Positions 38,001 through 42,403 of a stretch of 64,000 nt of DNA are shown here, in pieces. The notes under the pieces are model-generated. The model had not been told where the DNA came from. It was given only the letters and a program-made list of their open reading frames with translations, and did no database searches. The translations under genes and the position numbers were made by a program. Source of the DNA: a virus; UHGV virus genome UHGV-0091736, one strand, 5' to 3'. Within the stretch, counting starts at the first letter, position 1; every line of letters begins with the position of its first letter.

Positions 38001-38165
38001 ATGTGGAAAATTAAGTTAATCATTAAGCAATTCAAATGTGATCATGAGTACTATCGGATACGCAAAGCTTACGGGGATGAAAGAGTTCACTCCCTTTATA
38101 AGTCCACTTGGAGATGTAGTGAATGTGGTAAGCTTAAGCACAGCACATGGATGGATAGGCCTTAA
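38001..38165 (+). CDS. small zinc-ribbon protein (below track cutoff)
   Basis: 54 aa MWKIKLIIKQFKCDHEYY...RCSECGKLKH; alternative to track ORF 38038-38241. Confidence 0.3.
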   Translation: MWKIKLIIKQFKCDHEYYRIRKAYGDERVHSLYKSTWRCSECGKLKHSTWMDRP

Positions 38166-38375
38166 CGTGACATGGCCTTTATGGGGGTGCCTTAATGTGA
38201 AGTCCCTTTTATGTTTTAACTTTTATCAGAGGGATGTATGACTGAAGATGAATATGGTAGCTTCTCTGAAGAAGACTACGAAAATGAATACAGGTATACT
38301 CACGGGTGTTAATGTGAGGTGGCCTTTACGGGTTAGATAGCCATCAAAGATGACGATATGACTAGCCCTTTATAC
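38161..38375 (+). promoter_or_regulatory. four copies of a 25-nt promoter-like repeat
   Basis: CTTAACGTGACATGGCCTTTATGGG 38161; CTTAATGTGAAGTCCCTTTTATG 38191; GTTAATGTGAGGTGGCCTTTACGGG 38308; ATATGACTAGCCCTTTATAC 38356. Confidence 0.45.
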
Positions 38376-38395
38376 TTTACTCAGAGGACAAAAGT

Positions 38396-38506
38396 ATGGG
38401 ATGGTTCCTGTTGGTTTTAATTCTTTTTACCACTGTTCCTATTGTTGCTGTGTTTGGTTGCATAGCCGCTGACTTATTAGGAATAAAGAAAGGAGATGAT
38501 TTATGA
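38396..38506 (+). CDS. small hydrophobic single-helix peptide
   Basis: 36 aa MGWFLLVLILFTTVPIVAVFGCIAADLL...; SD GAGGA; ATGA overlap with next gene. Confidence 0.35.
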   Translation: MGWFLLVLILFTTVPIVAVFGCIAADLLGIKKGDDL

Positions 38507-38859
38507 GGTTGGATTTAAGAGGTTGTACTAGGTCAGTTATATTGTTCAGAGGTTATGCTATCAAGATTCCTACTTTTAAATCTTGGAAGCTTTTCTTAAA
38601 AGGGATTCTTGCTAATCTACAAGAGAGACATTTCTCTGAGATGAAAGACCCCAACCTTTGTCCTGTAGTCTTCTCTGATAAGTTAGGTTTCTTAGTAATA
38701 ATGAAGAGGTGTAAAGAGGTTGAGCACATAGGATTGTGGATGGCAGAGATTCACACCTTGAAAGGTTCCCTTCCTAAAGAATTTTACCTGTCAGATCTTA
38801 AGCCAGAAAATTATGGATACCTAGGCGGGCGGTTGGTTAAATTAGATTATGGAGATTGA
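38503..38859 (+). CDS. minimal protein-kinase-like protein (T7 gp0.7-like catalytic motifs)
   Basis: 118 aa; YAIKIPTFK (VAIK-like), DLKPEN catalytic loop, KLDYGD (DFG-like); strong SD AAAGGAGA. Confidence 0.45.
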   Translation: MRLDLRGCTRSVILFRGYAIKIPTFKSWKLFLKGILANLQERHFSEMKDPNLCPVVFSDKLGFLVIMKRCKEVEHIGLWMAEIHTLKGSLPKEFYLSDLKPENYGYLGGRLVKLDYGD

Positions 38860-39083
38860 TCATGAATTTAATACTAGACTTTTTATCAGAGTTGGTGCCT
38901 CGGTTCAGAACAGAAACTTGTGCCTTTGTTAAGATATCCCCTGAAGAATTAGAATGCATCGGTCGTCTGGTTGACTTGGATGATGATGAAGAATTTGATG
39001 CAACGATGGAAGTTAGTAGCCTAGGATGGTTATTCTTCCGAGCGTTCACCACTATCAAACCACACACTTATAAGGAATATTAA
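38856..39083 (+). CDS. hypothetical protein
   Basis: 75 aa acidic ORF. Confidence 0.45.
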   Translation: MIMNLILDFLSELVPRFRTETCAFVKISPEELECIGRLVDLDDDEEFDATMEVSSLGWLFFRAFTTIKPHTYKEY

Positions 39084-39086
39084 TTT

Positions 39087-39488
39087 ATGTTAGACTTAAT
39101 CCACACTACTCGCCCTAATTCTAAAACTAAAACACAACCATCTACTCTGGAAGTAGTTGAATATGAATCTACTAAACATGACCACCTCCCTGACTATGCT
39201 CGTGCAATGATTGAGATGATTGAAGAAGCTGAATATGAAATGCTCCATGATTACATTACCTCCAAAGATGAATGGCATCGTGATGTTCGAATAGAAGAGG
39301 ATGGTACAGAAACAATTACGTGGATTCACAAGAGTGAGCTAGTAGACGACGCACTGCGAGACTACGAAAAATTTTTGGTCGACGGCTCTATTCTTTTAGA
39401 GGAAGGGAAGGGTGCAGAACTTCCGTGGGAAGGCGAGACGATTGCTCTTGGTAAGATGTTTAACCTGTCCGTTGGTGATTGTAAGTAA
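39087..39488 (+). CDS. hypothetical protein
   Basis: 133 aa acidic ORF; terminator downstream. Confidence 0.5.
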   Translation: MLDLIHTTRPNSKTKTQPSTLEVVEYESTKHDHLPDYARAMIEMIEEAEYEMLHDYITSKDEWHRDVRIEEDGTETITWIHKSELVDDALRDYEKFLVDGSILLEEGKGAELPWEGETIALGKMFNLSVGDCK

Positions 39489-39493
39489 TATTT

Positions 39494-39516
39494 GCCTCCG
39501 TTGGGAGGCTTTTTGT
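39494..39516 (+). terminator. rho-independent terminator
   Basis: GCCTCCgttgGGAGGC followed by TTTTTGTGTT. Confidence 0.6.
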
Positions 39517-39544
39517 GTTGTTGATAATGTAGAAGGAGTATAAA

Positions 39545-40087: not shown

Positions 40088-40699
40088 ATGTCACTAGATA
40101 AACAAATTTATGAAGCTCTAACTGGTAACAATCTTAGTGTAGATGAAAAGAAAGCACTATTGAATATGTTGAAAGAGCGTGACCAATGGAGGAAGTATAA
40201 TAGGATTTTGTCTTTCAAGGCGTATGACTTCCAAAAGAAATTTTATGCAGCAGGATTGAAGCATAGGTTCAGGTTTCTCTGTGCGGCTAACCGAGTTGGG
40301 AAAAGTTACAGTGAAGCGTACGAATTCGCATGCCACGTTACCGGAAGATATCCAACATGGTGGACCGGTCATAAGTTTAAGAGGCCAATACTTGCGTGGG
40401 CTGTAGGGATTACAGGGGACTCAACAAGGAAAGTATTGCAAAAAGAATTATTTGGTACACCAATTGGAAAGGACACTAATCTGCTAGGTACTGGAGTTAT
40501 TCCACGAGATGCAATAGTAATAGATACTATAGAAAGGGATGGTAATAAGCTACAGATAGTACAGATTAAGCACCAGAATGAAAGGGGTGAGTTTGATGGA
40601 TTAAGTACGTTAGAATTTCGATCAACACAACAGGGTGAACATACACTGATGGGTGCTACTGTTGATTATATATGGCTGGATGAAGAGGATTGTATATAA
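40088..40699 (+). CDS. terminase large subunit, 5' exon (ATPase Walker A/B)
   Basis: Walker A AANRVGKS; Walker B YIWLDEE; ORF stops 5 codons after DEE. Confidence 0.8.
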   Translation: MSLDKQIYEALTGNNLSVDEKKALLNMLKERDQWRKYNRILSFKAYDFQKKFYAAGLKHRFRFLCAANRVGKSYSEAYEFACHVTGRYPTWWTGHKFKRPILAWAVGITGDSTRKVLQKELFGTPIGKDTNLLGTGVIPRDAIVIDTIERDGNKLQIVQIKHQNERGEFDGLSTLEFRSTQQGEHTLMGATVDYIWLDEEDCI

Positions 40700-41479
40700 C
40701 ATAGCTAGAAGTGTTGGTCCTCTATAAACTCGGTGAATTGCTGGAACCTCTGACCCTTAAGTGGAAGACAATCAGCAGCGAAGATAATGTATAACTTACT
40801 CATGATACATTATAACGTTCAACGACTATCGAAAGCATAGCCCGTATGGGTGAAGAAGCAAGTAGAGTAGATACCAAGTGGTATCGAAGTGCCGAGCAAA
40901 ACTAAGGAGTGATACATTGGGTAGACCTAACAAATCATTAGATTCAACCAAAACATGTTCAGTGTGCTCTGTAACAAAAGACATAGAATCTTTTGCAATA
41001 AGAACAAGAGCAATATCCACTGGAGAGGTTAGAATCTACCGTAAGTCTCAATGCAAAGAGTGCATGGCTGAGATGAGAAGGGATTGGGGTAAGAATAATC
41101 CAGATAAGATTCGTGAGAATAATAATTCTCCAAATAAGAGAGCTTGCGATAATGCAAGACGGGCTGGATTAGAAACTGCTTCTATTATCAGAGATGATGA
41201 GTATAATAAATTTGTTATGGAAGAAATGTATGAACTTCGAAATCTTAGAACAAAGGAAACTGGATTTCAATGGCATGTAGATCACATAATCCCTTTAAAA
41301 GGTAATAACGTATGTGGTTTTCATGTCTGGTATAACTTGCAGGTAGTTCCTGCTGTTTTCAACCTATCTAAGAGTAATAGTTTTGATGATATAGTCTGCT
41401 CTGCATGGAAACATGCAGCTGGAGAAATCCGGGATGAGATTAACGATCTTGTCTGAACAACACGCCATATGAGTCTATG
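40691..41479 (+). mobile_element. putative group I-type intron splitting the large terminase gene; carries HNH ORF
   Basis: ATPase motifs resume at AIFAQCV...TATPENG in 41477 ORF; no SD before exon 2; insert has AAACTCGGTGAA block shared with the polymerase and helicase insertions. Confidence 0.6.
40878..41456 (+). CDS. HNH homing endonuclease (intron-encoded; start may be TTG at 40917)
   Basis: Zn-finger CSVCS...CKEC plus HNH core [38 protein letters not shown]. Confidence 0.7.
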
Positions 41480-42403
41480 GCTATATTCGCACAGTGCGTC
41501 ACACGTACACTCACAACTAAAGGTCTAGTTACAATTACAGCTACACCAGAGAACGGTTTAACTGAACTGGTAGATAAATTTATGAAAGGTGAAGGGGATG
41601 AGAACACAGGTTCTCTATATTTCCAGAATGCTTCTTGGTGGGATGCTCATGCAGACCTAGGTGGACATATCACTGACCAAGATATAAAAGATATGACTGA
41701 AGGTATTCCAGCGTGGCAGTTAGAGATGCGTTCGAAAGGTATGCCATTGTTAGGAAGTGGTTTGATATATGATGTATCGGATGACACAATTAAATGTGAA
41801 CCATTCGAAATTCCTGATACGTGGAAACGTGTCTGTGCAATTGATATTGGTATTGATCACCCAACTGCTGCTGTTTGGACAGCTTACGATGCAAACACGG
41901 ATACTGTCTATGTTTACGACTCATATAAAGAAGGTGGCTTTACTCCAGTGTATCATGCTCCAGCTATTAATGGTCGTGGTCAGTGGATTCCTGTCATCCT
42001 ACCGCATGATGCGGACAATATTGAGAAAGGTAGTGGATCATCTGTTGCTCAATTCTATAAGAATGCAGGAGTTAATGTACAGAGTGAGACCTTCTACAAC
42101 AAAATTGGAATGGATGGTAAAAAGAACTTCTTTGTAGAACCCGGAATCACAGATATCCGAGAAAGAATGATGAGTGGACGCTTTAAAATCTTTAACACAG
42201 CTGCTAACGCTAAGCTATTCGAAGAGAAAGCTAGATATCACCGCAAGGTTGGTAAGATTATTAAAGAACATGATGACTTAATGGATGCAATGCGCTATTC
42301 AGCGTGCTCTGTTACACATCGTGGTCGCTCTAAGCATGACGTTAGCTACGGAAGTGCTTCTCTGTATGAGGCAAACGTAAGCAGATGGAATCAGAGTTAC
42401 TAA
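41477..42403 (+). CDS. terminase large subunit, 3' exon (ATPase motif III and nuclease domain)
   Basis: TATPENG coupling motif; CAIDIGIDHPTAAVWTAYD...VYVYDSY nuclease-type acidic motifs. Confidence 0.8.
   Translation: MAIFAQCVTRTLTTKGLVTITATPENGLTELVDKFMKGEGDENTGSLYFQNASWWDAHADLGGHITDQDIKDMTEGIPAWQLEMRSKGMPLLGSGLIYDVSDDTIKCEPFEIPDTWKRVCAIDIGIDHPTAAVWTAYDANTDTVYVYDSYKEGGFTPVYHAPAINGRGQWIPVILPHDADNIEKGSGSSVAQFYKNAGVNVQSETFYNKIGMDGKKNFFVEPGITDIRERMMSGRFKIFNTAANAKLFEEKARYHRKVGKIIKEHDDLMDAMRYSACSVTHRGRSKHDVSYGSASLYEANVSRWNQSY

Follow-up and report, generated by a model that had tools for sequence, protein, structure and literature searches.

A complete 118-residue protein-kinase-like protein in a phiEco32-like phage and the PHROG 4301 family to which it belongs

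The question raised by this locus is whether a protein of only 118 residues can be a protein kinase. The window analysed here, the whole 64,000-nucleotide stretch of the UHGV virus genome UHGV-0091736, is the permuted genome of a phiEco32-like podovirus (Kuravirus), and its plus strand carries a short open reading frame (ORF) that the first-pass annotation took for a miniature, perhaps degenerate, kinase-like protein, made early in infection and resembling the T7 kinase gp0.7 (T7K). The three motifs on which that reading rested, YAIKIP, DLKPEN and KLDYGD, are present as claimed at residues 18-23, 98-103 and 113-118, in the order of Hanks subdomains II, VIb and VII, and residues of subdomains I and III are conserved as well. 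KLDYGD makes up the final six residues of the protein and the stop codon follows directly. The ORF and its kinase-like elements are given below, with conservation taken from an alignment of 164 sequences (the 118-residue protein and 163 retrieved homologues) anchored on a hidden Markov model (HMM).

38503..38859, plus strand: kinase-like ORF of 118 residues, a member of PHROG 4301 (from the ORF list and its translation)
38521..38538, plus strand: remnant of the Gly-rich loop, subdomain I, G7-C-T9-R10-S-V12 (G7 98%, T/S9 93%, R10 98%, V12 94%)
38554..38571, plus strand: YAIKIP, strand beta3 with the ATP-binding Lys K21, subdomain II (K21 99%, P23 97%; predicted strand 18-23)
38602..38625, plus strand: GILANLQE, helix alphaC with E41, subdomain III (G34 98%, N38 98%, E41 99%; helix 28-45)
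38794..38811, plus strand: DLKPEN, catalytic loop, subdomain VIb (position 98 D in 60% and E in 36%, K100 84%, position 103 N in 65% and S in 32%)
38839..38856, plus strand: KLDYGD, Mg-binding DFG-equivalent, subdomain VII (D115 99%, Y116 88%, G117 87%)

Conservation in the family is highest at these motif residues, and G105, directly past the catalytic loop, is conserved in 97% of the sequences. The family's G-x-T-R-x-V aligns with the GEGxxRKV[FY] loop of a longer sister family, and it can therefore be read as the Gly-rich loop with an Arg replacing the third Gly. Positions 98 and 103 covary, and none of the common patterns departs from the rule: D is paired with N (DxKxxN) in approximately 60% of the aligned sequences and E with S (ExKxxS) in about a third; the pairing of a longer acid with a shorter polar residue is what would be expected of neighbours in a constrained active site. 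In the 118-residue protein the spacings are 20 residues from Lys to Glu, 5 from Asp to Asn, 17 from the catalytic Asp to D115 and 77 from Lys to the catalytic Asp, the corresponding values in PKA being 19, 5, 18 and 94. Relative to PKA, the shortening is thus limited to the stretch between the beta3 Lys and the catalytic Asp (77 vs 94). The suggestion that the kinase is degenerate is not borne out, given that its catalytic residues are kept throughout the family.

Structure prediction, which had been proposed as a check on the annotation, returned a kinase-like fold. The predicted local distance difference test score (pLDDT) of the AlphaFold2 models was 87 with a 15-sequence alignment and 95.2 with a 145-sequence alignment, the latter with a predicted template modelling score of 0.85 and with all five models at 93 or above. 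The predicted elements are beta1 (2-4), beta2 (10-15), beta3 (18-23), alphaC (28-45), beta4 (55-58) and beta5 (65-68), followed by two short helices (76-83, 92-96) and then by the catalytic loop, beta7 (104-107), beta8 (110-113), DYG and the end of the chain. Several features that define a protein-kinase-like fold are therefore predicted, namely an N-lobe beta-sheet with alphaC, a paired beta3 Lys and alphaC Glu, and D98...N103 together with a DFG-type D115 that lies 17 residues past D98. The helical C-lobe (alphaE, alphaF and the following helices) that should lie under the catalytic loop is not there: only the two short helices, 76-83 and 92-96, come before the loop, and the chain stops 3 residues past D115. 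In other words, Hanks subdomains I-VII are present, and VIII-XI (activation segment, APE, alphaF-alphaI) are absent. Structure searches with the models nevertheless returned protein-kinase-like matches almost exclusively. With the better model, Foldseek matched TTK/MPS1 at an E-value of ~1e-3 (TMq 0.55-0.61), Rio2 being next, and the matches in BFVD were family members, other small phage proteins, and annotated Ser/Thr kinases of phages and giant viruses. The conserved motifs, the models and the structure matches together support the description of the protein as unusually compact and kinase-like.

The protein matches PHROG 4301, a family of unassigned function for which Pfam and NCBIfam offer no model (E=1.7e-34, 120 bits, residues 4-117), and this is its sole PHROG match at E<=1; six family relatives from jumbo phages, T4-like phages and metagenomes likewise match only PHROG 4301 at E<=10. 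A family profile built from 15 close homologues and searched against 1.84 billion representative proteins retrieved 1,158 clusters (50% identity) at E<=1e-3 and 613 at E<=1e-10. Nearly all of these clusters are 110-135 residues long, and the profile match extends to their C-terminus. The C-terminal end lies 2-3 residues past the DxG Asp in 125 of the 164 aligned sequences and at most 7 residues past it in 143. Given this family-wide length and C-terminal end, the 118-residue protein is complete and not a fragment. Extensions of 140-150 residues, present in longer members, held no recognisable fused domain. Family proteins are basic, with a median isoelectric point of 9.1, and a few database records give them automatic 'Ser/Thr kinase' labels. 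Members are found in the jumbo phages 121Q, PBECO4, G17, Erwinia Y3, Aeromonas PS1 (three copies) and OBP, in T4-like phages (JS10, IME341, PhiZZ30), in Vequintavirinae (rV5-like), in the N4-like phi G17, in Kuravirus and in others. A scan with a narrow search pattern, covering bacteria and archaea at one genome per species, gave essentially no members.

It is suggested here, as the reading towards which we lean, that the product of the ORF is a minimal enzyme of the protein-kinase-like type, complete and stand-alone, which transfers phosphate to a host target. The protein retains the ATP-binding N-lobe (G-x-T-R-x-V, beta3 K21 and alphaC E41); past this lobe a very short helical linker takes the place of alphaD/alphaE and leads to D98-L-K100-P-E-N103, beta7-beta8 and D115-Y-G. 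Since the canonical elements of the C-lobe are missing (activation segment, APE, alphaF-alphaI), the phosphate-transfer face would be left open. The protein would bind Mg-ATP and move the gamma-phosphate to a host target during infection, and the D-x-K-P-x-N signature points most of all to a protein substrate phosphorylated on Ser/Thr. A partner, the substrate or self-association would probably be needed to stabilise the active site, as in other minimal kinases. Catalysis and a protein substrate are proposals that go beyond the fold, the completeness and the family-wide conservation shown here, and by analogy with the T7 kinase the biological role may be host takeover or anti-defence.

Several observations weigh against this reading. 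The activation segment and alphaF serve in kinases for peptide-substrate binding and for anchoring of the catalytic spine, and their absence makes activity without a partner uncertain. The His and Arg of HRD are missing from the catalytic loop of the 118-residue protein, and one third of the family has E/S in place of the catalytic D/N. Among the top structural neighbours, Bud32 and Rio have mostly ATPase functions and Ark1 phosphorylates RNA. In sequence searches the protein matched nothing in Pfam even at E<=10, nor anything in NCBIfam or PADLOC, and the family profile found TTK as its best match among PDB sequences at a sub-threshold E=0.02. Clustering of flanking ORFs over at least 34 loci gave no family-wide neighbour and no consistent partner or pathway, and literature searches found neither a description of the family nor biochemistry for any member. 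As to the other results of these searches, the alignment of the profile with TTK is in register over HSDLKPANF...LIDFG and is independent of the structure search, single-sequence and small-profile searches of PDB sequences gave only noise, and the Pfam scan of 145 members gave scattered sub-threshold PIP49_C and ABC1 hits in four of them.

An active minimal kinase need not act on protein. The substrate could instead be RNA or DNA ends, a ribose 2'-OH, a nucleotide or second messenger, or a sugar or lipid of the envelope, although we consider this unlikely. The Lys two residues past the catalytic Asp (D-x-K-P-x-N) is a textbook hallmark of Ser/Thr protein kinases that small-molecule kinases of the same fold usually lack, and the gene neighbourhoods offer such a substrate little encouragement. 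An association with tRNA genes was considered and rejected, as these lie within 6 kb in only 3 of 29 loci; no neighbour is shared by the family, and the adjacencies that do occur are lineage-specific. In the Dhakavirus phages JS10 (L004 2977-3345) and IME341 (L006 2480-2848), for instance, the family gene fills the slot between 24.3 and rnlB (RNA ligase 2) and overlaps the start of rnlB by 13 nucleotides, which could hint at an RNA-end kinase role in that lineage only. In PhiZZ30 the family gene adjoins a tRNA array, and in one relative it comes after an endolysin gene. In the jumbo phage 121Q the gene for DenV (endonuclease V, a pyrimidine-dimer glycosylase) lies two genes downstream of the family member, and in three loci the stop codon of a sister-family gene overlaps the DenV start.

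A second alternative, to which we would also assign a low probability, is that the protein binds a nucleotide and transfers no phosphate, being either an ATPase switch of the Bud32/Rio kind, docked on a host machine, or else a nucleotide sponge or a regulator of pseudokinase type. Against this stands the conservation of the catalytic-loop positions 98, 100 and 103 besides K21, E41 and D115, at least one of which pseudokinases typically lose (textbook knowledge), and the paired substitution of D/N by E/S, which is the pattern of an active site under selection and not of a simple binding pocket. The ORF is highly unlikely to have arisen by chance or to be a pseudogene or truncated relic of a full-length kinase: its length is under half that of a canonical kinase domain, it stops precisely at the DFG-equivalent and it lies in a variable, mosaic region, but the idea is effectively refuted by the family-wide length distribution, with more than 1,000 clusters of the same length and C-terminal end, and is opposed by a strong ribosome-binding site, by five deep-alignment models with pLDDT of at least 93, by substitutions that indicate purifying selection, and by the keeping of the gene in unrelated phages (jumbo, T4-like, N4-like, rV5-like and Kuravirus).

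The minimal kinase-like gene stands in the window beside a second small ORF, on a stretch of DNA that differs from its surroundings.

38334..38850, no strand assigned: cassette of ~0.5 kb without a phiEco32 counterpart; it takes the place of the phi32_2/phi32_3 region and contains both ORFs
38396..38506, plus strand: ORF for a hydrophobic, single transmembrane-like peptide of 36 residues, with a GAGGA ribosome-binding site 8 nucleotides upstream
38487..38492, plus strand: Shine-Dalgarno sequence AAGGAG, 7 nucleotides 5' of the start codon at 38503 (seen in the sequence itself)

In blastn comparison with phiEco32 the alignment runs at 91-96% identity to 38333, resumes at 38851 (72%) and continues from 39087 (95%). 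The DNA flanking the cassette is 91-97% identical to phiEco32, ES17, YW01 and about 90 other records, and no Kuravirus record in the database searches covered 38334-38850. The GC content of the cassette is 36-38%, against 40-42% in the flanks. No deposited phage record held a copy more than 60% identical to the 118-residue protein; metagenomic Kuravirus contigs have the ORF pair at the same place, with the kinase-like protein 96% and the 36-residue peptide 83% identical, and in two of these relatives (L043 and L044) the 36-residue ORF is predicted as a gene. Between the kinase-like gene and a metagenomic copy there are 6 synonymous and 5 non-synonymous differences, giving a ratio of non-synonymous to synonymous change (pN/pS) of ~0.22 on 11 substitutions only. 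The gene would have entered the phiEco32-like phage on this 0.5-kb cassette together with the membrane-type peptide.

The TGA of the 36-residue ORF and the ATG of the kinase-like ORF share the sequence ATGA, which makes the translational coupling proposed in the first-pass annotation plausible; that part of the claim holds for this sequence, but coupling to a hydrophobic peptide is no general feature of the family. The peptide matched none of the PHROG models. An upstream hydrophobic peptide as a general partner was considered and rejected, since one is found only in the Kuravirus cassette and, in a non-homologous form, in 121Q (Asteriusvirus), where gene 214 (L005 2241-2492) is a strongly hydrophobic, membrane-type ORF of 84 residues before the family member. 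The two hydrophobic ORFs each lie no more than 10 nucleotides before the family gene and are not obviously homologous, and the other lineages have no hydrophobic ORF in that place.

Position ~37748 of the window corresponds to nucleotide 5 of phiEco32, the window spanning the junction of phiEco32-type genome ends, and 38001-39488 on the plus strand is therefore the left-end small-gene operon, upstream of the terminase genes. Beyond the cassette this operon (38862-39488) is itself a mosaic. Its phi32_4 homologue has 72% DNA identity, and its phi32_5 homologue (PHROG 12176) has 133 residues here and 231 in phiEco32, the N-terminal part being missing; the label 'ABC transporter' given to PHROG 12176 in some records is probably a mis-annotation. 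Two further elements mark the end of the operon.

39494..39509, plus strand: terminator-like hairpin, separating the left-end operon from the gene-6 homologue
39525..39533, plus strand: phi32_gp36-type promoter-like element TAATGTAGA, preceding the packaging and structural genes

In phiEco32, late genes are transcribed rightward and early and middle genes leftward, and promoters dependent on phi32_gp36, with the consensus tAATGTAtA, stand before genes 6, 13, 26 and others (PMC8948821). In the window, the hairpin and the TAATGTAGA element together mark where the operon 38001-39488 ends and the packaging and structural genes begin. On the minus strand, at 37278-37251, there is a strong sigma70-like promoter (TTGACA-16-TATAGT), and its position at the head of the leftward early cluster fits the reported early promoters; no strong plus-strand sigma70-like site was found upstream of the kinase-like gene. 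The designation as an early protein is thus not upheld, because the gene lies outside the leftward phiEco32 early cluster and on the same strand as the late packaging and structural genes, opposite to the early and middle genes of phiEco32. In the N4-like phage phi G17 the homologue is among small ORFs near a genome end, which we take to be an early region. The expression class may differ between phages.

Downstream of the operon, the terminase large-subunit (TerL) gene (40088-42403) is interrupted by a 774-bp insert, 40691-41464, placed exactly after codon 201 (...IWLDEED|P...) in what is taken here to be the Walker B region. In a metagenomic relative TerL is uninterrupted, at 513 residues. 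The full length of the Rfam group I intron model aligns to 40672-41418 (45 bits, the gathering score being 50; E=4.7e-10). The last nucleotide is T in the 5' exon and G in the insert, and the insert carries an HNH-like ORF, 40878-41456. From its sequence the insert looks like a group I intron with an HNH-like homing endonuclease.

Kinase-fold proteins in phages are already known. What is new is a length of ~118 residues, an end at the DFG-equivalent and an intact catalytic set in more than 1,000 clusters. It is a tentative proposal, about which we retain some doubt, that PHROG 4301 consists of active ~118-residue kinases and represents a widespread second class of phage takeover or anti-defence kinases, independent of T7 gp0.7. 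If active, these proteins would be much smaller than any minimal kinase-fold enzyme of which we know. In kinase structural biology alphaF and the C-lobe are the scaffold for the catalytic and regulatory spines; if the proposal is true, an ATP-binding lobe with the catalytic and Mg loops would suffice for phosphotransfer without the activation segment, alphaF or the remaining C-lobe. Here an abundant natural family has kept all catalytic residues and dropped that scaffold, with a compact fold predicted at a pLDDT of 95, and it could allow the minimal requirements for phosphotransfer to be tested directly and provide a very small scaffold for engineering. The family is unrelated to that of T7K and much more widespread, with several copies in some genomes, and its spread over phage groups suggests that phosphorylation-based manipulation of the host may be common.

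Comparison with known kinases helps to place the family. Hanks-type Ser/Thr kinases such as TTK/Mps1 and PknB have subdomains VIII-XI, which the 118-residue protein lacks, and a kinase domain of about 250-300 residues; in the phage protein two short helices are all that is left of alphaD/alphaE, an invariant Arg takes the place of the third Gly in the Gly-rich loop, and the HRD His-Arg is absent. The protein does not match Pkinase PF00069. The known minimal or atypical kinases Bud32, Rio1/2, the archaeal RNA kinase ArkI/Ark1 and the effector OspG, together with NleH and HopBF1, keep alphaE, alphaF and part of the C-lobe. Their matched chains are 169-269 residues long, and PHROG 4301 proteins, ending at the DFG-equivalent, are ~60-70% of the size of the smallest among these kinases. 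Closer to hand are the sister families, one of ~142 residues (PaMx11-type) and others of 160-200 residues (Lacusarx-, CBB- and RaK2-type), which have the DLKPENFG...DYG/DYA core and the predicted fold in common with the 118-residue protein. They differ from it in a more canonical G-x-G loop (GEGxxRKV[FY]) and in having 15-80 residues after DxG, and are only 26-29% identical to it. ORFs of the ~142-residue sister family, with DLKPENFG, DYA/DYG and a tail of 15-20 residues, were seen in the IMG/VR contigs L023 (2526-2954), L026 (5896-6498) and L027 (5893-6321).

The resemblance to T7 gp0.7 that had been noted for this ORF proved to be generic only. T7K belongs to PHROG 2828 (E=9e-137), and the 118-residue protein and its relatives belong to PHROG 4301 only; hhalign of the family alignments against T7K gave a probability of 0.1-0.2%, that is, no match, and a T7K-like BFVD entry gave only a weak structure match to the 118-residue model (E=0.016). 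The motifs also differ, T7K having D-M-H-S-G-N and DPV where the PHROG 4301 protein has DxKPxN and DYG (Y 88%, G 87%). The T7K homologues reported from jumbophages, including phage G17, were selected with PHROG 2828 HMMs at E<=1e-10 (PMC13645617). The possibility that those of G17 are PHROG 4301 proteins was rejected: the G17 member, P0005, has no PHROG 2828 match at E<=10 and so differs from them, and a PHROG 2828 search would miss the family altogether, since its members are unmatched even at E<=10. In architecture T7K alone is extended by ~65 residues at the N-terminus, contains a longer helical insert and has a shut-off domain at the C-terminus. What the two have in common is that both are phage-encoded, with a kinase-like fold and a very short tail past the DFG-equivalent, and that the canonical activation segment is absent from both. 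With the T7K kinase domain set at 1-242 and its DPV motif at 213-215 (PMC13645617), that domain ends ~27 residues beyond the DFG-equivalent. According to recent work, T7K phosphorylates promiscuously and thereby disarms many defence systems (PMC13645617), and it offers a precedent for the use of a kinase by a phage in host takeover and anti-defence.
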